The notes: generated by a model not told the origin, from the sequence alone. A stretch of DNA of 64,000 nt from Escherichia coli (GCF_044324875.1 NZ_CP172185.1); one strand, 5' to 3'. Shown: positions 25,656 through 58,900, numbered from the stretch's first letter. Made by a program: numbers and translations.

Positions 25656-28331
25656 TTAAGCGGATTTCTTCGCTTTTTTCTCAGCTTTAGCCGGAGCGGC
25701 TTCCTTTTTCGCTGCAGTTTCACCTTCTACATAATCACGACCGTAGTAGGTATCCAGCAGAATCTGTTTCAGCTCGGAGATCAGCGGGTAACGCGGGTTA
25801 GCGCCGGTGCACTGGTCATCGAATGCATCTTCAGACAGTTTATCCACATTCGCCAGGAAGTCTGCTTCCTGAACGCCAGCTTCACGGATAGATTTCGGAA
25901 TACCCAGTTCAGCTTTCAGCGTTTCCAGCCATGCCAGCAGTTTCTCGATCTTAGCAGCAGTACGGTCGCCCGGTGCGCTCAGACCCAGGTGGTCAGCAAT
26001 TTCAGCATAACGACGGCGAGCTTGCGGACGGTCATACTGGCTGAATGCAGTCTGCTTGGTCGGGTTGTCGTTCGCGTTGTAGCGAATAACGTTACAAATC
26101 AGCAGGGCGTTTGCCAGACCGTGCGGAATATGGAACTGGGAACCCAGTTTGTGCGCCATTGAGTGACATACACCCAGGAAGGCGTTCGCAAACGCGATAC
26201 CCGCGATAGTTGCTGCACTGTGAACACGTTCACGCGCTACCGGATTTTTAGATCCTTCGTGGTAGGACGCTGGCAGATATTCTTTCAGCAGTTTCAGCGC
26301 CTGCAGAGCCTGACCATCAGAGAACTCAGATGCCAGTACAGAAACATAAGCTTCCATGGCGTGAGTTACTGCGTCCAGACCACCGAAAGCACACAGGGAC
26401 TTCGGCATGTCCATAACCAGGTTGGCATCGACAATCGCCATATCCGGGGTCAGCGCATAGTCTGCCAGCGGATATTTCTGACCAGTAGCGTCGTCAGTTA
26501 CAACCGCAAACGGAGTGACTTCAGAACCTGTACCAGAAGTGGTGGTGACAGCGATCATTTTCGCTTTCACGCCCATTTTCGGGAACTTGTAGATACGTTT
26601 ACGGATATCCATAAAGCGCAGCGCCAGTTCTTCGAAGTGAGTTTCCGGATGTTCGTACATGACCCACATGATCTTCGCGGCGTCCATCGGGGAACCACCA
26701 CCCAGCGCGATAATCACGTCTGGTTTAAAGGAGTTTGCCAGTTCTGCACCTTTACGAACGATGCTCAGGGTCGGGTCAGCTTCTACTTCGAAGAAGACTT
26801 CAGTTTCAACGCCTGCTGCTTTCAGTACGGAAGTGATCTGATCAGCATAACCATTGTTGAACAGGAAGCGGTCAGTCACGATGAGCGCACGTTTGTGGCC
26901 ATCAGTAATCACTTCATCCAGCGCGATTGGCAGGGAGCCACGGCGGAAGTAGATAGATTTCGGAAGTTTGTGCCACAACATGTTTTCAGCTCGCTTAGCA
27001 ACGGTTTTCTTGTTGATCAGGTGTTTCGGACCAACGTTTTCAGAGATGGAGTTACCACCCCAGGAACCACAACCCAGAGTCAGGGAAGGTGCGAGTTTGA
27101 AGTTATACAGGTCACCGATACCACCCTGAGAAGCCGGGGTGTTAATCAGGATACGAGCCGTTTTCATTTTCTGACCGAAGTAAGAAACGCGAGCCGGTTG
27201 GTTATCCTGGTCAGTGTACAGGCAAGAGGTATGACCGATACCGCCCATAGCAACCAGTTTCTCTGCTTTTTCTACCGCGTCTTCGAAATCTTTAGCGCGG
27301 TACATTGCCAGAGTAGGGGACAGTTTTTCATGTGCGAACGGTTCGCTTTCATCAACAACGGTCACTTCACCGATCAGAATCTTGGTGTTTTCTGGTACAG
27401 AGAAGCCTGCCAGTTCAGCAATTTTATAGGCTGGCTGACCAACGATAGCCGCGTTCAGCGCACCGTTTTTCAGGATAACGTCCTGAACAGCTTTCAGCTC
27501 TTTACCCTGCAACAGATAGCCGCCGTGGGTTGCGAAACGTTCACGTACTGCGTCATAAACAGAGTCAACAACAACAACAGACTGTTCAGAAGCACAGATT
27601 ACGCCGTTGTCGAAGGTTTTGGACATCAGCACAGATGCAACTGCACGTTTGATATCAGCAGTTTCATCGATAACAACAGGCGTGTTACCCGCGCCTACAC
27701 CGATAGCTGGTTTACCGGAGCTGTATGCGGCTTTAACCATGCCCGGACCACCAGTCGCGAGGATCAGGTTGATGTCTGGGTGGTGCATCAGTGCGTTAGA
27801 CAGTTCAACAGAAGGTTGATCGATCCAGCCGATCAGATCTTTCGGAGCACCGGCAGCGATAGCAGCCTGCAGAACGATATCAGCCGCTTTGTTGGTTGCA
27901 TCTTTTGCACGCGGGTGCGGGGAGAAGATAATGGCGTTACGGGTCTTCAGGCTGATCAGCGATTTGAAGATAGCAGTTGAAGTCGGGTTAGTGGTCGGAA
28001 CGATACCGCAAATAATACCGATTGGTTCAGCGATAGTGATGGTACCAAAAGTGTCGTCTTCAGACAGAACACCACAGGTTTTTTCATCTTTATAGGCGTT
28101 GTAGATATATTCAGAAGCAAAGTGGTTTTTGATCACTTTATCTTCGACGATACCCATGCCGGATTCGGCAACGGCCATTTTCGCGAGTGGGATTCGAGCA
28201 TCTGCAGCAGCCAGAGCGGCGGCGCGGAAGATTTTGTCTACTTGCTCTTGAGTGAAACTGGCATATTCACGCTGGGCTTTTTTTACACGCTCTACGAGTG
28301 CGTTAAGTTCAGCGACATTAGTAACAGCCAT
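25656..28331 (-). CDS. adhE: Bifunctional acetaldehyde-CoA / alcohol dehydrogenase
   Basis: 891-aa [23 protein letters not shown]. Confidence 0.97.
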
Positions 28332-28807
28332 AATGCTCTCCTGATAATGTTAAACTTTTTTAGTAAATCATCTGCTCGAATACGAGAGTATAGTCAGTGC
28401 GGTGATGATTTGCTTAACCGATGAAAATCAAAAGCTTACTCGCGCTCACACTCACTGTGATTTACTAAAAGAGTTTAAACATTAGAGTTATTATCTCTAA
28501 TGCGTCACTTCCAGGTGGCGTAAGCAAGATTACTCACTTCTGGGTACTGATTACGTGATCCAAATCAAATTTTTGCAAAGCTGACACCTTTCAGCATCGC
28601 TTTTCGCCATTATAGCTAACAGTTAATAAATTGTAGTATGATTTGTTGGCTACATTATCATGTTTTGCACAACCAGATAACAATAACGAATGATAGCAAT
28701 TTTAAGTAGTTAGGAGGTGAAAAATGCTGTCAAAAGGCGTATTGTCAGCGCGTCTTTTTAACCTTATTTATGGCTAACATTATCCGGCTTTTGCTTCGGA
28801 GCTAACC

Positions 28808-29455
28808 GTGATTCAGACCCTTTTTGATTTTCCCGTTTACTTCAAATTTTTCATCGGGTTATTTGCGCTGGTCAACCCGGTAGGGATTATTCCCGTCTTT
28901 ATCAGCATGACCAGTTATCAGACAGCGGCAGCGCGAAACAAAACTAACCTTACAGCCAACCTGTCTGTGGCCATTATCTTGTGGATCTCGCTTTTTCTCG
29001 GCGACACGATTCTGCAACTTTTTGGTATATCAATTGATTCGTTCCGTATCGCCGGGGGCATCCTGGTGGTGACGATAGCGATGTCGATGATCAGCGGCAA
29101 GCTTGGCGAGGATAAACAGAACAAGCAAGAAAAATCAGAAACCGCGGTACGTGAAAGCATTGGTGTGGTGCCACTGGCGTTGCCGTTGATGGCGGGGCCA
29201 GGGGCGATCAGTTCTACCATCGTCTGGGGTACGCGTTATCACAGCATTAGCTATCTGTTTGGTTTCTTTGTGGCTATTGCATTGTTCGCTTTATGTTGCT
29301 GGGGATTGTTCCGCATGGCACCGTGGCTGGTACGGGTTTTACGCCAAACCGGCATCAACGTGATCACGCGTATTATGGGGCTATTGCTGATGGCATTGGG
29401 GATTGAATTTATCGTTACTGGTATTAAGGGGATTTTCCCCGGCTTGCTTAATTAA
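28808..29455 (+). CDS. ychE: MarC-family inner membrane protein YchE
   Basis: 215-aa membrane ORF, GTG start. Confidence 0.85.
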   Translation: MIQTLFDFPVYFKFFIGLFALVNPVGIIPVFISMTSYQTAAARNKTNLTANLSVAIILWISLFLGDTILQLFGISIDSFRIAGGILVVTIAMSMISGKLGEDKQNKQEKSETAVRESIGVVPLALPLMAGPGAISSTIVWGTRYHSISYLFGFFVAIALFALCCWGLFRMAPWLVRVLRQTGINVITRIMGLLLMALGIEFIVTGIKGIFPGLLN

Positions 29456-30192
29456 TTCCTTTCAAATGAAACGGAGCTGTCATGCTCCGTTTACTTCGTC
29501 ATTATTTTTACTTTGTTCCGGTGCAGTTATCAAAAGCAAAGGGAATGGGTAAAAATATTCTTCTTGAATTACAGTTGGTTATAAGGATTTCCTTAACTGC
29601 TTCTCCTCACCATCATGTTATTTTCGCCACATCATAATCCTGGGCTTGCTGAAGAATAATTGAAATGATATTAGTTATTCCACTGCCTTTGGTAGAGGAA
29701 AGTGCTAAATAATAATCAATTGTTAAATTATTGTGCATTTCACTACTGGAACTGTAATCAGAAAAGATAGACATGCTTAACCAATCTCTATTTGATTGAA
29801 TTGAAAGATGTTTGTTAAGACATGGATGCAAGCTATAGATTCTGATACGGTCAATAAAAGAGAATTGCTTAACAATTTTGCAAAATGTATTGGCGAGTAA
29901 GAAGCGCATTTGGTACTTTCCGGGCAACCGCCAGACGATTCTTTATTGGTAATGAGAATAATTAACAATTAAAGAGCGTCGCGAAAGAATAATGTGTCTC
30001 GACAGGGGAGACACAGTACGAATCGACATAAGGTGATCGTCTGAATCACCAGAATAAATAAAGTCGGTGATAGTAATACGTAACGATAAAGTAACCTGAC
30101 AGCAGAAAGTCTCCGAGCCTGTGCAGGGTCCCAATCCGGGATTACACATGCTGGTTAATACCAGTAATTATAATGAGGGAGTCCAAAAAACA

Positions 30193-37972: not shown

Positions 37973-38026
37973 ATGTACTGGGCACCATTGCGGTGCCCAA
38001 TAAGTTTACTCTTCCGTCTTTAAACT

Positions 38027-39280
38027 CTATTTTTGCGCCGATTCTTTACTGTCAGCTTTCGTTTCTTGTTCATCGTTATCGCTGAAAATACCATGACCTG
38101 AGTTCAACAACATTGAAACGAGCATATCATTATTAATCTCTTCACCATTTAAAACTCGCGCCAGAATTTCGCTGCCAAACAGTTGCGGTGAGAGAATGAT
38201 ATCCGGATGTACCATCTTAATCTTATTCAGGTTTTTGCTATCACTGACGGCGAGAACTGTTTTGACATCACTGCTCATATCTTTTGCCGAGAGTACAACA
38301 AACGCGTTATCTGCATCGTTATCACTCAGCGCCAGAATGGCCCGGCAACGATCGATTCCCGCTTTCTTTAATACTGAACTGTCATTACTGTCACCGGGGA
38401 TAACATCAGCGTTATCGCCTAAGCGTTGCTCAAGTTGCTTGATATCATCTTCAGGCAAGTTGCTGATAACCGTTACGTTTTGTCCGCGTTGATTCAGTTG
38501 CAGGATCGTATTGATGGCGAGAATCGAATGTCCGCAAACAATAAAATGATCTTTACGATGCATTGTATGATTGTTTCCTTTTACAAGTTTGTTGAATCCC
38601 CCGCGGATAAGCGGACCAAAAATTGAGGTCATAGAGGTGGCAAAAACGGTAATGCCGGAAATAATGACCGAAATAGTGAACAATCGTGCTGATTCAGAAA
38701 CAGGGACAATATCGCCATAGCCGACGGTTGACATGGTTTCTATCGAAAAATAGAACGCGGTCATCAAACTTTCTATTCGCGGATTAAAACCTTCGCTTAA
38801 ATAAAGCGCACCGTAGGTGGAGTAAAACAGTAACGTCGTGAAACTAATAAATGCGAAAATTGTCCCGGCTGCGGCGCTACTGTGGGAGAAGTCTTTGCGC
38901 AGTATCAGCAAAAACACCAGCGTAAAAATGCAAAATCCAATACTAAATTTCAGCCAGGGATAAAAATGCAGGGTGTAAATTAGCGCTATCAACAACAAAA
39001 TGATACTGATTGCCCATGCGAGCTTTGCCCGGAACAGTAAGCCAATGGAGTTCAGGACAAGAAAGACGCCGAGCATAAATAGTGGGGCGTTTGCCAGCAA
39101 GGAGAGATCCAACTCTGAAAATGCTTTGATATGGAAAATATCAAGCAAATTGACCGACATACCATAGATTGTTTTAAAAATAAGCAATCCATTTAAAAAG
39201 ACGGCCAGCGCGAGAATGTCGTGCCGTAGGGTCACCCATAAATTTGTTGCTGTTTGTTTGAATGTAGCCCAGTGACTCAC
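38027..39280 (-). CDS. kch: Voltage-gated K+ channel Kch
   Basis: 417-aa ORF from GTG; TVGYGD selectivity-filter motif. Confidence 0.9.
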   Translation of the reverse strand: MSHWATFKQTATNLWVTLRHDILALAVFLNGLLIFKTIYGMSVNLLDIFHIKAFSELDLSLLANAPLFMLGVFLVLNSIGLLFRAKLAWAISIILLLIALIYTLHFYPWLKFSIGFCIFTLVFLLILRKDFSHSSAAAGTIFAFISFTTLLFYSTYGALYLSEGFNPRIESLMTAFYFSIETMSTVGYGDIVPVSESARLFTISVIISGITVFATSMTSIFGPLIRGGFNKLVKGNNHTMHRKDHFIVCGHSILAINTILQLNQRGQNVTVISNLPEDDIKQLEQRLGDNADVIPGDSNDSSVLKKAGIDRCRAILALSDNDADNAFVVLSAKDMSSDVKTVLAVSDSKNLNKIKMVHPDIILSPQLFGSEILARVLNGEEINNDMLVSMLLNSGHGIFSDNDEQETKADSKESAQK

Positions 39281-39580
39281 TGATACCTCTGTAACCACAA
39301 TTTTGTTTAATTATCTCAACGTGCACATTTTCTGAACATACATGCGGCACGTGAATGTGTTAAACAATAGTAGATGACTTTATCCGCAGTAATCAAAGGT
39401 TTTGAGTGAGCAACTCTGCGTCAGGAAAGGGCATTTTTCCTGAATATGCTCACATCATATAAAGAAATACAGATAAAGTTATTATCTGCTTGTGGGGGGG
39501 AATGCACTGACCGACCTATAAGGAAAGGCCAAACAAGAACACGGTTGCAAAAACCGTGCCCTTAAATATTGAATCTCTAT

Positions 39581-39877
39581 TCAGAACACTTTCTTAAATG
39601 GTTTCACTGAAACGTGTTCATAGACTCCTGCCGCTACGTACGGGTCAGCATCGGCCCAGGCCTGAGCTGCTTCCAGCGATTCAAATTCAGCAATAACGGT
39701 TGAGCCAGTAAATCCCGCAGCCCCTGGATCGTTACTGTCTACCGCTGGCATTGGACCAGCTGTCAACAAACGACCTTCATCATGCAGTAACTGTAAACGT
39801 GCTAAATGTGCCGGACGAACGGAAAGGCGTTTTTCGAGGCTATCAGCTTTGTCTTGAGCGTAAATAACATACAACAC
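39581..39877 (-). CDS. yciI: YciI-like protein
   Basis: 98-aa ORF from GTG. Confidence 0.8.
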
Positions 39878-40029
39878 GGGCACAACTCCTTGTTCGGGAA
39901 AGTTGTAAAGTACGTTATTTGAAAGGGCGAAGATCTGCAACGGAAAGATGATGACTTTGTTAAGACCATGCATAAAGTAAGGTCAATTACGCTAAAAATG
40001 ACATTTTCACTGATCCTGATCGTCTTGCC

Positions 40030-43734: not shown

Positions 43735-44241
43735 TTATTTCTTCGCTTCCACGCCATCAGTTTCAGAGCGAATTAAGAATTTCTCAGTTGTTTGCGGAAT
43801 ATGCTGAATTAGCCAGTCGGCCATGTGCTTTTCCTCATTTAAAATCGCTTCGATAATCGGAATTGAGGCTGTATCACCGGCATTTTTTGCTGCTGCTAAG
43901 AGTGAGGTATAACAGGCGATTTCAAATTGCTCGAAGACATATCCGCTAATAGAGCCTTTGACTATTTCATCAGAAGGGAATATACCACCGATTGACTGTC
44001 CAAGCGCAGCCATTTTACTCATGGAATCTTTAATGACTGAACGTGAAATGTCATTACGATCAAGAATAGTTTCCAGTTGAACAATCTGGTTTTTGGTTTC
44101 ACTAAGATGTTGTTCAATACGAGCGCGTAGTTCAGGATAATTATCTATACGACTGGCCATGGATTCAAGCATAGATTCGGCTTGCTTTTCCATTGCGTGG
44201 GCGTCACGTAACCAGTCATGATAATGTTCAATACGATTCAT
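43735..44241 (-). CDS. yciE: Ferritin-like protein YciE
   Basis: 168-aa ORF. Confidence 0.9.
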   Translation of the reverse strand: MNRIEHYHDWLRDAHAMEKQAESMLESMASRIDNYPELRARIEQHLSETKNQIVQLETILDRNDISRSVIKDSMSKMAALGQSIGGIFPSDEIVKGSISGYVFEQFEIACYTSLLAAAKNAGDTASIPIIEAILNEEKHMADWLIQHIPQTTEKFLIRSETDGVEAKK

Positions 44242-44286
44242 GAAAATGTCCTCTTTATAAAATGACTAAAAGTTAAAGTTCATATT

Positions 44287-44787
44287 TCAGGCTTTATTTT
44301 CGGCTTTCTTATTTACGTTATTAAGGGCCAGATCAGTCAGTTTGATGTCTGTGGCCTTTTCTTCTTCCAAAGTTTCTTTCAGAAGCTTCGCTGCTTTACG
44401 GTAACCTAATTGTTCAGCCAGCGTCGCTAAGGTCCCGTAACTGGCGATCTCATAGTGCTCGACTTTCTGTGCAGCGGCAATTAGTGCGGCATCACGTACT
44501 TCGTTTTTCTCGGTGCTTTCGATGACCTCATTAGCTTCTTCAATGAGACCTTCCATTGCCACACATTTCATGCGCTTAATTTTCAGGTTCGATTCAGATT
44601 CCACAACTTGATCAATTCGTTCAATCTGTCCATGAGTTTCCTCGAGGTGCGCATGAAAAGCCTGACTTAATTTTTCATTTGATGTTGCTCTTGCGAGTTT
44701 TGCCAGTGCCCGGGTTAATTGTTTTTCTGCGCTGTAGGTATCTGAAAGCAGGTGAATAAATACATCTTCAATGGTCTTCATATTCAT
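44287..44787 (-). CDS. yciF: Ferritin-like stress protein YciF
   Basis: 166-aa ORF MNMKTIEDVF. Confidence 0.9.
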   Translation of the reverse strand: MNMKTIEDVFIHLLSDTYSAEKQLTRALAKLARATSNEKLSQAFHAHLEETHGQIERIDQVVESESNLKIKRMKCVAMEGLIEEANEVIESTEKNEVRDAALIAAAQKVEHYEIASYGTLATLAEQLGYRKAAKLLKETLEEEKATDIKLTDLALNNVNKKAENKA

Positions 44788-44872
44788 ATTTTTCTCCAGT
44801 GAAATCACTGCGAGCCATACGGCCCGCAGATGCAATTATCTTTATCAGCTGATATTAATAATTAACGGTGAA

Positions 44873-45052
44873 TCAGGATTTTCCTGATTTATTACCACCG
44901 CTTTGTTGACCGCCTTTTTTACCCGCTTCGGATGCGCGTTGCGGATCATTTTTAAAATTACCGCCGCTATGCTGACCGCCTTTACGGCCTGCGTCGGATG
45001 CCTTCTCACGGTCTTCGGCGAAATTTCCTGAACCACCACGATGTTCGGCCAT
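44873..45052 (-). CDS. yciG: KGG-repeat stress protein YciG
   Basis: 59-aa Gly/Lys-rich ORF MAEHRGGSGNF. Confidence 0.8.
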   Translation of the reverse strand: MAEHRGGSGNFAEDREKASDAGRKGGQHSGGNFKNDPQRASEAGKKGGQQSGGNKSGKS

Positions 45053-53762: not shown

Positions 53763-55658
53763 ATGGCAGGGATATATCGCTGCATTTTGCTGTTGATAGT
53801 TGGGCTTTTTTTCTCTTCGTTGAGTTATCCGAAAAACACGGAGATCCCTTTTTATGAAGAAGGGATCTCGCTCTTTGATGTTGAAGCCACTCTGCAACCG
53901 GATGGGGTGCTCGACATCAAAGAAAATATTCATTTTCAGGCGCGAAATCAGCAGATTAAGCACGGATTTTATCGTGATTTACCACGACTCTGGATGCAGC
54001 CTGATGGGGACGCTGCACTGCTGAACTATCATATTGTTGGCGTCACCCGTGATGGTATTCCTGAACCCTGGCATCTTGACTGGCATATCGGGTTAATGAG
54101 TATTGTCGTGGGCGATAAACAACGTTTCTTGCCTCAAGGCGACTATCATTATCAAATTCATTATCAGGTTAAAAATGCTTTCCTGCGTGAGGGAGATTCA
54201 GATCTGTTAATCTGGAACGTGACTGGTAACCACTGGCCGTTTGAAATCTATAAGACCCGATTTTCACTCAAGTTCCCTGATATCGCGGGTAATCCATTTA
54301 GCGAAATCGATCTCTTTACTGGAGAAGAGGGCGACACATATCGAAATGGCCGCATCCTTGAGGACGGAAGAATTGAATCCCGCGATCCGTTTTATCGTGA
54401 AGATTTCACGGTACTCTACCGCTGGCCTCACGCTTTACTTAGCAATGCCCCGGCTCCACAAACGACGAATATTTTCAGCCATCTTCTTTTACCCTCCACG
54501 TCATCGTTGTTAATTTGGTTTCCGTGTCTATTCCTGGTTTGTGGATGGTTATATCTCTGGAAGCGCAGGCCGCAATTTACGCCGGTAGATGTGATTGAAA
54601 CCGATGTCATTCCGCCAGATTACACGCCCGGCATGTTACGTCTCGATGCGAAGCTGGTTTACGACGATAAAGGTTTTTGTGCCGATATCGTAAATCTGAT
54701 TGTGAAAGGCAAAATTCATCTGAAAGATCAGTATGACAAGAACCAGCAAATCCTGATTCGTGTTAATGAAGGCGCGACCAGAAATAATGCGGTATTACTG
54801 CCCGCAGAGAAGTTATTACTGGAAGCGTTATTTCGTAAAGGCGATAAGGTCGTTCTTACGGGGAGACGCAACAGAGTCTTACGCAGTGCATTTTTACGGA
54901 TGCAGAAATTTTATCTGCCGCGTAAAAAGTCTTCGTTTTACCGGCCTGATACGTTTTTGCAATGGGGCGGAATGGCGATATTGGCGGTCATTCTCTATGG
55001 TAACCTGAGTCCCGTAGGTTGGGCAGGAATGAGTCTGGTTGGCGATATGTTTATTATGATCTGCTGGCTTCTTCCTTTTTTATTTTGTTCCCTTGAGCTT
55101 TTGTTTGCCCGCGATGATGACAAGCCTTGCGTTAATCGTGTAATCATCACTTTGTTTTTACCGCTGATTTGTTCAGGCGTGGCCTTTTACTCTCTCTATA
55201 TCAATGTCGGAGATGTATTCTTTTACTGGTATATGCCAGCGGGTTATTTTAGCGCTGTTTTCCTGACCGGTTATCTCACTGGCATAGGGTATATTTTTCT
55301 GCCAAAGTTTACCCAAACTGGGCAGCAACGTTATGCCCACGGTGAAGCTATCGTTAACTATCTTGCGGGTAAAGAGGCAGCAACACACAGTGGGCGGCGG
55401 CGGAAAGGGGAAACACGGAAACTGGATTACGCGTTGTTAGGTTGGGCGGTCTCGGCAAACCTTGGCAGAGAATGGGCAGCACGTATCACCCCATCACTCA
55501 CAGCGGCTGTTCGCGCCCCGGAAATTGCCCGTAGTGGCGTTTTGTTCTCATTACAGATGCACCTGAGTCTGGGGGCCAATACCAGTTTGTTGGGGCGAAG
55601 TTATTCCGGTGGTGGTGCTGGCGGCGGGGCGGGTGGCGGAGGCGGTGGTGGCTGGTAA
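53763..55658 (+). CDS. yciQ: Membrane protein YciQ (DUF2207-like), Gly-rich C-terminus
   Basis: 631-aa ORF with multiple TM segments; ends in a Gly-rich tail. Confidence 0.85.
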   Translation: MAGIYRCILLLIVGLFFSSLSYPKNTEIPFYEEGISLFDVEATLQPDGVLDIKENIHFQARNQQIKHGFYRDLPRLWMQPDGDAALLNYHIVGVTRDGIPEPWHLDWHIGLMSIVVGDKQRFLPQGDYHYQIHYQVKNAFLREGDSDLLIWNVTGNHWPFEIYKTRFSLKFPDIAGNPFSEIDLFTGEEGDTYRNGRILEDGRIESRDPFYREDFTVLYRWPHALLSNAPAPQTTNIFSHLLLPSTSSLLIWFPCLFLVCGWLYLWKRRPQFTPVDVIETDVIPPDYTPGMLRLDAKLVYDDKGFCADIVNLIVKGKIHLKDQYDKNQQILIRVNEGATRNNAVLLPAEKLLLEALFRKGDKVVLTGRRNRVLRSAFLRMQKFYLPRKKSSFYRPDTFLQWGGMAILAVILYGNLSPVGWAGMSLVGDMFIMICWLLPFLFCSLELLFARDDDKPCVNRVIITLFLPLICSGVAFYSLYINVGDVFFYWYMPAGYFSAVFLTGYLTGIGYIFLPKFTQTGQQRYAHGEAIVNYLAGKEAATHSGRRRKGETRKLDYALLGWAVSANLGREWAARITPSLTAAVRAPEIARSGVLFSLQMHLSLGANTSLLGRSYSGGGAGGGAGGGGGGGW

Positions 55659-56761: not shown

Positions 56762-56788
56762 ATAAAGGCCCTGCGGGGCCTTTTCTTC
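56762..56788 (+). terminator. Terminator after rluB
   Basis: aaaggccc-tgcg-gggccttt hairpin plus TTTTCTTC. Confidence 0.7.
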
Positions 56789-56913
56789 ATTTGAAGCATG
56801 ATAAATAGTCGCAGTATTTTAATTTAATTTCATACTTGCTTATGAATAATACCCGGAAATAGCCACATTACTATTTAATTATCTGAGATAAACTCAACGT
56901 CAAGAGGTGGGTT

Positions 56914-57936
56914 ATGATTAGATATAGTGGAATATTTCTATCGCTGTTAATGCTTTCAGGTTGTGCAACTGAAGCATTGAAAAACGAACAAGCTGAAACT
57001 GTTATTACTGCGGGTAACAAAGCAGTAGCGGCGAATGCAAGTTTCTTTAAACAATACTATGCTTCTCGTGAAAACTTCCTTGTTAATTTTTATGCGACTA
57101 ATCCGGATTGTGCACCTCGACCAGATTATGAGGTAGTTATTGAAAACAGTACCAGTGATGAGTCATTATGTCAGCAACCTGGAGATAAGCACAAAAAATC
57201 TCAAGAAGATCTTTTTATTACAAAGATAGTCGCTACTGAAAAAGAAAGATTGCTGGCTTCTATGGAAATCATTAGCAGTATGAGTTCTTATGTCGAACTT
57301 TTGAATGAGGATTTAGATGTTAAAGACAGCAAACAGTTCATATTGCTTAAACAAGCTCTGGATCACGCGAATAATGCGGGGGCACTTCTGGGCATCAATG
57401 ATGGTGGAACATTAACAAAATCTGCAGCAGCGGTTAAAGATTTAGTGGTTTATTTCAATGGGTTGTATAATACAAGGGTAAGCGCAGGGAATATAGGTAG
57501 TACGGTAAATAATCATTGGCAAAGAATAAAAAATGATCTAACTGATATACGAAACGATATCGCGACAAAAGGTAAACAAACTGGAAGAAATACCTTTGCG
57601 ACGGTACATAATAATCTCGTTTATTACAATGCCTCCTTAAAAAAAGGAGGAGGTAATGAATTTAAGACATTGAAGAGCAGACAAGAATTCCTGGCTGCGA
57701 TTATCAGTATTAATGAAACACGTCTTCGTGCAGCAGATCCAGCTATTCCAGCAATACAAGCACTGAACTCATTTCTTGACGAGGGGAATCACCTTAAGGA
57801 TTTATACACTAATAAAATACGCACAGCGGCTGAACAAAAAAGGCTAAATGAAATATTACGCGCACAGGTCATTAGTGGGTTAAAGGCGTCTGAGGGGCTG
57901 GCAAAACTACTTATTGCCAGCGGAATAATGTTATAG
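56914..57936 (+). CDS. Predicted lipoprotein of unknown function (340 aa) in an AT-rich insertion
   Basis: ORF with AGAGGTGG RBS; signal peptide MIRYSGIFLSLLMLSGC with lipobox LSGC and Ala at +2; codon usage visibly AT-rich compared with neighbours. Confidence 0.75.
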   Translation: MIRYSGIFLSLLMLSGCATEALKNEQAETVITAGNKAVAANASFFKQYYASRENFLVNFYATNPDCAPRPDYEVVIENSTSDESLCQQPGDKHKKSQEDLFITKIVATEKERLLASMEIISSMSSYVELLNEDLDVKDSKQFILLKQALDHANNAGALLGINDGGTLTKSAAAVKDLVVYFNGLYNTRVSAGNIGSTVNNHWQRIKNDLTDIRNDIATKGKQTGRNTFATVHNNLVYYNASLKKGGGNEFKTLKSRQEFLAAIISINETRLRAADPAIPAIQALNSFLDEGNHLKDLYTNKIRTAAEQKRLNEILRAQVISGLKASEGLAKLLIASGIML

Positions 57937-57948
57937 GAGGGGCTTTTT

Positions 57949-58257
57949 ATGAACGATGTACAAAACCGTAGAATATTGGCATTACTTGATATGCTGTATA
58001 ATACTCTGGGCAACAAAACCACATGCAAGGTTTGTCATAAATATTTTATCCTTATCCTCACGGTGATGAACAATCTGACGATTAACTACGGTACTGAAAC
58101 TTCGCCAGAGTTAAGCGGAATCAGTTATGAAGATGCCAATGCGTTAATTACTGAACTGATATTATTTATTGAAGATGTTGACGCTGAGAATCATGAAGCA
58201 TATCCGGGACATTTGAATGAGATTAAACGGATTCTGAGTTTTGCTATTGCCGCTTGA
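57949..58257 (+). CDS. Hypothetical small protein (102 aa), partner of the lipoprotein
   Basis: ORF 12 bp downstream of the lipoprotein stop with AGGAGG RBS; no signal peptide; CKVCH motif. Confidence 0.65.
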   Translation: MNDVQNRRILALLDMLYNTLGNKTTCKVCHKYFILILTVMNNLTINYGTETSPELSGISYEDANALITELILFIEDVDAENHEAYPGHLNEIKRILSFAIAA

Positions 58258-58271
58258 ATATAATTATGATT

Positions 58272-58306
58272 AAAGCACCTCAAGAGGCGATCTTTTGAGG
58301 TGCTTT
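58272..58306. terminator. Hairpin between the insertion cassette and btuR (convergent)
   Basis: Perfect 12-bp inverted repeat aaagcacctcaa / ttgaggtgcttt with 11-nt loop. Confidence 0.5.
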
Positions 58307-58309
58307 CAC

Positions 58310-58900
58310 TTAATAATCAATCCCTATTTGCGCCTTAACACCGGCATCAAACGCATGTTTGATGGGGCGCAGCTCACTTACCGTATCCGCCAATTCAAGA
58401 ATATCCCGATGACAACCACGACCCGTGATAATCACCGTCTGTTGATGTGGACGTTCATTTAACGCCTGCACCACTTCTTCCAGTGGCAAATAGTCATACG
58501 CCACCATATACGTCAGTTCATCGAGCAAAACCATATCCAGTGAAGGATTGGCAAGCATCCGCTTTGCATGTTGCCAGACTTCGCGACAGGCGGCGGTATC
58601 AGACTCGCGGTTTTGTGTATCCCAGGTAAAGCCCGTTGCCATCACCTGAAATTCAACGCCGTGTGGTTCCAGCAGATTTCGTTCGCCATTAGGCCAGGTG
58701 CCTTTAATAAACTGCACGACGCCCACTTTTTTTCCGTGACCAACTGCGCGTGTTGCCGTACCAAATGCCGCGGTGGTTTTGCCTTTTCCATTGCCGGTAA
58801 AGACGATGATAATACCGCGTTCATCCTGGGCCTGGGCCACACGAGCATCGACTTTTTCTTTCACTCGCTGCTGACGCTGTTGGTAGCGTTCATCACTCAT
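58310..58900 (-). CDS. btuR: Cob(I)alamin adenosyltransferase
   Basis: 196-aa ORF with P-loop-like GNGKGKTTAAFG. Confidence 0.95.
   Translation of the reverse strand: MSDERYQQRQQRVKEKVDARVAQAQDERGIIIVFTGNGKGKTTAAFGTATRAVGHGKKVGVVQFIKGTWPNGERNLLEPHGVEFQVMATGFTWDTQNRESDTAACREVWQHAKRMLANPSLDMVLLDELTYMVAYDYLPLEEVVQALNERPHQQTVIITGRGCHRDILELADTVSELRPIKHAFDAGVKAQIGIDY

Follow-up and report, generated by a model that had tools for sequence, protein, structure and literature searches.

Does the most AT-rich kilobase (GC fraction 0.38) of a long stretch of Escherichia coli DNA hold a genuine gene and, if it does, to what family does the product belong and what might it do? The stretch comprises 64,000 nucleotides (nt; GCF_044324875.1, NZ_CP172185.1) and is called the window below; the gene lies at positions 56914–57936 on the plus strand, where a preliminary description had noted an unrecognised lipoprotein of 340 amino acids (aa). 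We find that the gene is real and codes for a protein predicted, from its sequence, to be an outer-membrane lipoprotein of an unnamed family, and that it is the first of a two-gene operon, the second gene of which encodes a 102-aa partner. That the product is a genuine lipoprotein, predicted to sit in the outer membrane and to carry a disulfide-stapled variable head on a helical body, that it belongs to an undescribed family, and that it forms with a cytoplasmic partner a conserved, occasionally mobile pair, we hold to be very probable. The function that we favour, recognition or exclusion of a variable external agent at the envelope, is proposed far more tentatively and is weighed below against its alternatives.

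The features of the lipoprotein gene, with what each is based on, are as follows.

56902..56910, plus strand: ribosome binding site (RBS) AAGAGGTGG, 4 nt before the ATG (read from the sequence).
56914..57936, plus strand: lipoprotein gene, 340 aa, WP_000622028.1 (open reading frame; identical locus in strain AF40; Escherichia and Citrobacter homologues and distant relatives).
56914..56964, plus strand: signal peptide (aa 1–16) and lipobox L-S-G-C with predicted acylated Cys17 and Ala at +2 (Cys17 invariant in the alignments).
57100..57237, plus strand: hypervariable head (aa 63–108), with Cys66 at 57109–57111 and Cys86 at 57169–57171 (allele comparison, alignment entropy, model).
57238..57933, plus strand: predicted helical-bundle body (aa 109–340) with the conserved short hydrophobic tail LAKLLIASGIML (AlphaFold2 model, hydropathy).

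The open reading frame (ORF) runs uninterrupted from ATG to TAG over 340 codons, exactly as first reported, starts with MIRYSGIFLSLLMLSGCATE and follows a strong RBS. Its product is identical to the RefSeq 'hypothetical protein' WP_000622028.1, and E. coli AF40 (NZ_OZ547043.1) carries a 100% identical locus in which both products bear that same name. Several observations argue that this is not a chance frame: (i) 1,023 nt stay open in DNA of 35–41% GC, in which stop codons are frequent, behind a good RBS; (ii) alleles differ mainly at synonymous sites, the proportion of non-synonymous differences (pN) over the whole gene being about 0.19–0.22 versus 0.51–0.62 for synonymous ones (pS), which indicates purifying selection; (iii) all 25 aligned relatives have a lipobox or a near-lipobox and (iv) Cys17, Cys66 and Cys86 stay invariant down to 14% identity.

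The N-terminus (MIRYSGIFLSLLMLSGC followed by ATE) has the make-up of a lipoprotein signal, namely a positive n-region containing Arg, a hydrophobic core and a lipobox of the form [LVI][ASTVI][GAS]C, here MIRYSGIFLSLLM-LSGC. From Cys17 onwards the protein reads C-A-T-E, without the Asp at +2 that would predict retention in the inner membrane, so that Lol-dependent sorting to the outer membrane is predicted. The two further cysteines, in NPDCAP and SLCQQP, had been placed about 20 residues apart; they are C66 and C86 and are separated by exactly 20. The mature part is hydrophilic, as had been stated (grand average of hydropathy −0.31, isoelectric point (pI) 7.8), and its enrichment in Asn (8.6%) and Lys (7.7%) proves moderate, Ala and Leu being commoner still. 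The C-terminal tail is hydrophobic in all relatives and its hydropathy (KD19 1.12) lies below the level of a transmembrane helix. A C-terminal transmembrane anchor of the kind found in a unimolecular spanin was rejected on account of this low hydropathy.

The lipoprotein has close homologues in Escherichia and Citrobacter only. About a dozen further full-length relatives (326–357 aa, 21–30% identity) came from an exhaustive HMMER search of 1.84 billion representative sequences. A scan of 100,044 species-representative genomes found a homologue only in E. whittamii and E. albertii. Of two metagenome scans the first returned nothing and the second three weak loci, which added two relatives; a profile word-index search yielded no new members. 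In the resulting alignment of 25 sequences, in which identity falls to 14–25%, only five positions never vary, namely Met1, Tyr126 and the three cysteines (that of the lipobox and the two beyond it). A constant distance of 49 residues separates the acylated Cys from the first Cys of the loop, and the loop itself spans 18–23 residues. The lipobox pattern is matched in 22 of the 25 sequences, the remaining three having the near-lipoboxes VCTAC, LCGC and PGGC; in those 22, position +2 is occupied by A, T, S or G and never by D, in keeping with the predicted sorting to the outer membrane. Because the lipobox and all three cysteines are kept family-wide, lipoprotein status and a structural disulfide appear to be properties of the whole family, and the periplasmic disulfide C66–C86, first suggested as a possibility, is strongly supported by the invariance of both residues.

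No characterised family was found to match by sequence. The lipoprotein has no match in Pfam even at E ≤ 10, none in NCBIfam beyond 13-bit noise to PlsX, and none in the PDB by sequence or profile; no catalytic motif was found in it, as had been noted at the outset. Literature searches found no published characterisation of either protein or their locus, or of DUF3829 or YiiG, the lipoproteins that this one best resembles in predicted fold (see below). The sequence family is very probably undescribed; RefSeq and annotation pipelines call its members 'hypothetical'.

The gene does not stand alone. It occupies an islet of about 1.5 kb between the rluB terminator and a hairpin on the cobO side, which holds two genes; GC content drops from 0.54–0.56 to 0.35–0.41 at the rluB terminator. 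The other features of this islet are the following.

56764..56783, plus strand: intrinsic terminator hairpin of rluB, left boundary of the islet (terminator scan; 8-bp stem with 5 GC pairs, then a T-run).
56784..56901, plus strand: AT-rich upstream region, presumed promoter of the cassette.
57935..57940, plus strand: AGGAGG, serving as RBS for the partner gene; it overlaps the TAG that ends the lipoprotein gene at 57934–57936 (read from the sequence).
57949..58257, plus strand: partner gene, 102 aa, WP_001000709.1 (ORF, identical RefSeq protein, purifying selection, conserved residues).
58272..58306, unstranded: perfect 15-bp hairpin in the gap where the partner gene and cobO converge, which closes the islet on the right (RNA fold −22.2 kcal/mol, z = −5.9 versus shuffles).

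The hairpin at 58272..58306 is likely a bidirectional terminator; the cobO stop codon lies at 58310. At the other end, the presumed promoter region contains no sigma-70 match of at least 9/12, and no Rfam match was found in the islet region; regulation of the cassette might, for instance, involve silencing of AT-rich DNA by H-NS. The overlap of the partner RBS with the lipoprotein stop codon suggests translational coupling. That the partner is itself a real gene follows from purifying selection between its alleles (pN 0.14 versus pS 0.82). Its product is acidic (pI 4.8) and has no signal peptide, transmembrane segment or hydrophobic segment. C26-x-x-C29-H30 and H88 are conserved among enterobacterial partners, a pattern that hints at metal binding. 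Searches of Pfam, NCBIfam, PADLOC, PHROGs and the PDB with the partner gave no match. One partner allele, WP_001000713.1 from E. coli strain E5 (L020:2682-2990), is named 'amino acid kinase family protein' in RefSeq, near-identical alleles being 'hypothetical protein'; the label looks spurious, since neither Pfam nor NCBIfam supports it. A twin-arginine translocation signal in the partner (NRRILALL) was considered and discarded, as an Asp interrupts the hydrophobic stretch and relatives lack the motif.

The pairing extends to the distant relatives. At each of the 17 loci for which downstream DNA was recovered (window, L019, L020, L013, L014, L022–L024, L002, L005–L008, L025, L011, L015 and L017), a partner gene lies 6–25 nt downstream of the lipoprotein gene or overlaps it. 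Partners of 88–107 aa occur in L002–L004, L005, L006, L007, L008–L010, L025 and the enterobacterial loci; those of the enterobacteria and of a P2-like prophage are related (E = 2e-7). Conserved across clades, on sequence comparison, are the position and size of the partner, without demonstrable sequence similarity. Some distant partners are larger. Those of L015 and L017 (253 and 285 aa) are homologous to each other (E = 9e-21) and combine a soluble N-terminal part with two to three membrane helices at the C-terminal end. The L011 partner (L011:7035-9356) has 773 aa and no signal peptide, overlaps the lipoprotein stop codon and bears a metzincin-like HExxHxxxxxH motif (HEIGHALNLAH), with weak Pfam matches to M10/M12; BLASTP of its N-terminus against the L017 partner showed no homology, and a gene with a Trypco2 domain lies about 2.3 kb further downstream.

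Two of these distant loci hold additional genes nearby. In one lineage, that of L008, the lipoprotein gene is preceded at a distance of 40 nt by a gene for a 413-aa protein (L008:4719-5960), whose sequence appears to hold a signal peptide, a helical segment rich in Gln and Leu, and several membrane helices; it has no Pfam match, and the idea that it is a paralogue of the lipoprotein was dropped when hhalign showed no relation. It may be a third component in that lineage. Downstream of the L015 cassette (L015:2730-4162) are a 359-aa ORF with a thermolysin-type HELTHG motif and a 125-aa ORF, which are probably an unrelated neighbouring operon.

Within E. coli the cassette is polymorphic. By megablast it is present in about 1,234–1,237 of 5,426 complete genomes (roughly a quarter), always between rluB and cobO, and the same site is used in E. 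albertii, E. whittamii and Citrobacter. Genomes lacking it have an empty site or, in one case (E. coli Ec-U3; L018:2569-3266), IS1, so the site accepts other insertions. Each of four megablast searches of complete E. coli genomes also returned one plasmid-borne cassette match, beside about 1,235–1,242 chromosomal ones.

Three allele classes can be distinguished. Class B (for example L019), which includes sequence type (ST) 131, accounts for 776 genomes at ≥80% coverage, and class C (for example L020, 333 aa) for 425 at the same threshold. Class A, that of the window, is the rarest, with about 30 genomes by subtraction and at least 20 seen directly. Identity between classes is 92–100% over aa 1–62, falls to 36–52% in the head (aa 63–108) and is 55–62% over aa 109–300; for the last interval Escherichia and Citrobacter copies are 49–58% identical, close to the figure between classes. 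The head is the maximum of alignment entropy and contains a 7-aa indel. Synonymous divergence in the centre of the lipoprotein gene is near saturation in most blocks (pS mostly 0.5–0.9), compared with pS 0–0.26 in the first 60 lipoprotein codons and dS (synonymous substitutions per site) 0.07–0.09 in the flanking rluB. The dN/dS ratio is 0.04–0.69 and below 1 in every 30-codon block for which it is computable. The alleles are also mosaic, the partners of E. whittamii and L020 being 94–95% identical and their lipoproteins 67–68%. Such a pattern is that of old alleles which a single locus has retained or exchanged, the breakpoints of recombination falling within the lipoprotein gene.

Outside this site the cassette occurs in some loci on or beside mobile DNA. 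In L005 it is an insert of 34–40% GC that separates gene S (tail completion) from gene V (baseplate) of a P2-like prophage of 55–60% GC. Peduoviruses of Klebsiella, Erwinia, Yersinia and Escherichia match the flanks at about 72% identity and have no such insert. The S–V junction is the place where P2 carries the non-essential orf30. The L002 cassette adjoins an insertion sequence transposase, and that of L008 adjoins VapBC, Fic and a Y1 transposase. The view of the cassette as a conserved, occasionally mobile two-gene unit is well supported.

With close homologues alone, AlphaFold gave an unusable model (predicted local distance difference test score, pLDDT, 43.5). Adding the distant relatives to the alignment raised AlphaFold2 to pLDDT 67 with a predicted template modelling score of 0.62. 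In this model, which agrees with the earlier expectation of a largely helical protein, about 73% of residues are predicted to be helical: a long helix would span aa 17–62, a small beta-hairpin and loop at aa 63–108 (strands at 73–77 and 100–104) would hold both cysteines, and seven further helices are predicted at 110–129, 140–158, 169–186, 191–243, 253–272, 278–298 and 305–339. A Foldseek search of AFDB50 with this model returned the family's own relatives first and then lipoproteins of the same size. The best non-family match was a lipoprotein annotated as DUF3829 (template modelling scores 0.74/0.75, E = 4e-11), and the top 40 included seven more DUF3829, five imelysin or imelysin-like and two PilJ/NarX-like sensor entries. 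Specific links to ClyA/Mak toxins, to tetratricopeptide repeat lipoproteins or to cytochrome b561 were rejected once the improved model was available, and the protein does not fit the ClyA/Mak/Hbl-type alpha-helical pore-forming toxins, which are recognised by an elongated helical bundle with a hydrophobic beta-tongue head and by a specific fold match.

DUF3829 (PF12889) proteins and E. coli YiiG share with the family a size of about 330–350 aa, lipoprotein nature and a predicted all-helical bundle, and YiiG also has a cysteine pair in its mature part. None of the 25 members matches PF12889 at E ≤ 0.1, however, and hhalign of the family profile against YiiG (a single sequence, which limits sensitivity) gave a probability of 2.2%, with the signal peptide alone aligned. 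At +2 YiiG carries Asp (CDD), from which retention in the inner membrane is predicted; it also contains a long linker rich in Pro and Ala, and yiiG in K-12 lacks a downstream partner gene. Imelysin-like proteins (Peptidase_M75; the EfeO C-terminal domain, IrpA, Algp7) are likewise periplasmic or lipoprotein helical bundles of similar size; the HxxE motif of imelysins has no counterpart, there being neither a conserved His or Glu column in the alignments nor a Pfam match for the window protein or the 25 members. The only likeness to other proteins lies at the level of the predicted fold, and it is to DUF3829/YiiG-type lipoproteins, which are as uncharacterised as the family described here. Every element of the preliminary description has held in these analyses; it was incomplete in that the partner gene, the rluB/cobO islet, the allelic polymorphism and the hypervariability of the Cys66–Cys86 loop had been missed.

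What, then, might the pair do? In the mechanism that we propose, the product would be exported, lipid-modified at Cys17 and, having no Asp at +2, probably delivered to the outer membrane through Lol. In that position it would display a helical-bundle body and a small head, the hypervariable loop of which would be stapled by the Cys66–Cys86 disulfide, and the 102-aa partner would stay in the cytoplasm. Through its variable head the lipoprotein would recognise some agent from outside, itself variable, and would bind or sense this invader either at the outer membrane or within the periplasm. The partner would serve as regulator, adaptor or effector; in distant relatives it bears a membrane domain or a metzincin-like motif. 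Frequency-dependent selection would maintain both the alleles and the presence/absence polymorphism. To this reading, in which the module would recognise or exclude a variable outside agent at the envelope (phage most probably, possibly bacteriocins), we give a probability of about one in three. It would explain why some strains have the cassette and others lack it, why its allele classes are ancient and its presumably exposed loop variable, why one copy lies in a prophage, and why distant relatives have larger, effector-like partners.

Known proteins offer partial precedents. T5 Llp, phi80/N15 Cor, lambda Bor, F TraT and Streptococcus thermophilus TP-J34 Ltp are accessory envelope lipoproteins on mobile DNA, and Ltp is helical and blocks phage DNA entry. 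The cassette resembles these exclusion and conversion lipoproteins in being a mobile accessory element, one copy being an insert in a P2-like prophage. They are much smaller (about 60–240 aa) and act alone, with no conserved cytoplasmic partner; the family has no sequence or profile similarity to them in PHROGs, Pfam or NCBIfam and is essentially absent from sequenced phages. RcsF and NlpE are outer-membrane lipoproteins that need DsbA-formed disulfides and relay envelope events inward, and by analogy they could serve as a conceptual model for a disulfide-containing outer-membrane lipoprotein that senses an invader. Unlike the family, they are core and non-polymorphic and have known inner-membrane partners rather than a small cytoplasmic protein, and no similarity in sequence or fold links them to it.

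A number of observations weigh against recognition or exclusion at the envelope. It leaves unexplained how a periplasmic lipoprotein and a cytoplasmic partner would communicate. The enterobacterial cassette sits among housekeeping genes, not in a defence island, and variation in the centre of the lipoprotein is not mirrored in the partner, as the E. whittamii/L020 comparison makes plain. Since dN/dS is below 1 in all computable blocks, positive selection is not demonstrated. The lipoprotein matches no defence model in PADLOC-DB v2.0.0 (2023 library), nor do the larger partners and neighbours in L008, L011, L015 and L017 match PADLOC. In PHROGs the lipoprotein obtained only matches at the level of the signal peptide (E 0.09–0.16); tblastn against 50,697 phage genomes found no lipoprotein homologue, scans of IMG/VR no family member and a BFVD viral fold search no structural relative among viral proteins. 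With phage genomes, IMG/VR and viral structures negative, the link to phages comes from a single prophage example. No homology between the small partners of different clades can be demonstrated (hhalign probability 0.5%), and the structural model is only moderately confident (pLDDT 67). The bolder proposal of a new kind of envelope-anchored conflict system, in which a hypervariable-head lipoprotein would detect or block phage or bacteriocin in the periplasm, the partner, stand-alone in enterobacteria, would execute or relay the response and frequency-dependent selection would keep the alleles, that of ST131 among them, is in our opinion doubtful; the cassette is not demonstrably a new kind of system.

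The alternative that survives best is an ordinary physiological lipoprotein of the DUF3829/YiiG or imelysin-like structural class, which would bind or sense a small molecule, a metal or an envelope component in the periplasm. The small gene next to it would then be either regulatory or unrelated, and the cassette would be patchily distributed because cells can dispense with it. This explanation is credible, if not one that we would expect to hold: it draws on the same-sized DUF3829, imelysin and PilJ/NarX-like entries that are the best non-family Foldseek matches, on the synteny and apparently vertical inheritance of the cassette at rluB–cobO in Escherichia and Citrobacter, and on purifying selection throughout.

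A host-directed role is unlikely. Under such a role, the product would be a surface or vesicle lipoprotein contributing to serum resistance or adhesion or acting as an antigen (compare Bor and TraT), and host immunity would drive the allelic diversity. Carriers do include the extraintestinal lineages ST131 and ST648 and avian pathogenic strains, variability is concentrated in the disulfide loop, and one copy occupies an accessory-gene position in a prophage. However, distant relatives come from high-GC metagenome contigs of environmental or soil type (L015, L017, L006 and L011), for which a vertebrate host is unlikely; no sequence feature predicts surface exposure; Pfam, PHROGs and NCBIfam reveal no similarity to the Bor, Lom or TraT families, and the conserved cytoplasmic partner would go unexplained.

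Still less probable is a lipoprotein toxin followed by a cytoplasmic immunity protein, as in myxobacterial SitA/SitI or other polymorphic toxin–immunity cassettes. Gene order and sizes would fit (a large exported protein, then a cytoplasmic protein of about 100 aa with a coupled start), as would polymorphism of the locus between strains. Cassettes of this type join a conserved N-terminal delivery region to swappable C-terminal toxin domains and have a co-varying immunity gene; here homology is full-length, the C-terminus is conserved, and the partner is far better conserved between E. whittamii and L020 than the lipoprotein is.

We consider it highly improbable that the cassette is a decaying, functionless remnant of an old insertion, for although most E. 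coli genomes lack it, the copy in the E. albertii type strain NBRC 107761 (L014:2898-3916) matches in two pieces in different frames and is thus probably a frameshifted pseudogene, and several E. coli clusters are truncated N-terminally, the latter contain about 250 member sequences versus about 3,100 in intact clusters, pN is well below pS in both genes, and relatives with as little as 14–25% identity still retain the reading frame, the lipobox, the cysteines and the paired gene.

The genes around the islet are yciQ and rluB upstream and cobO (btuR), yciK, sohB and yciN downstream. The DUF2207 protein YciQ (window 53763–55658) ends in a long glycine run, GGGAGGGAGGGGGGGW. Further AT-rich stretches of the window (GC 0.42), at 28001–30000, 38001–40000 and 44001–45000, might be accessory insertions.

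Should the protein be a dispensable periplasmic binder, it would be a modest addition to the lipoprotein catalogue. If a role at the envelope is true, a function would be defined for two genes that about one in four sequenced E. coli possess, the pandemic ST131 lineage among them, and the family could provide an initial clue to what the DUF3829/YiiG lipoproteins, similar to it in predicted structure, might do. Three ancient classes at one locus, with variation in a disulfide-bounded loop, form a signature usual in surface antigens and in phage and colicin receptors; the locus is therefore a direct, testable handle on selection for diversity of the E. coli envelope.

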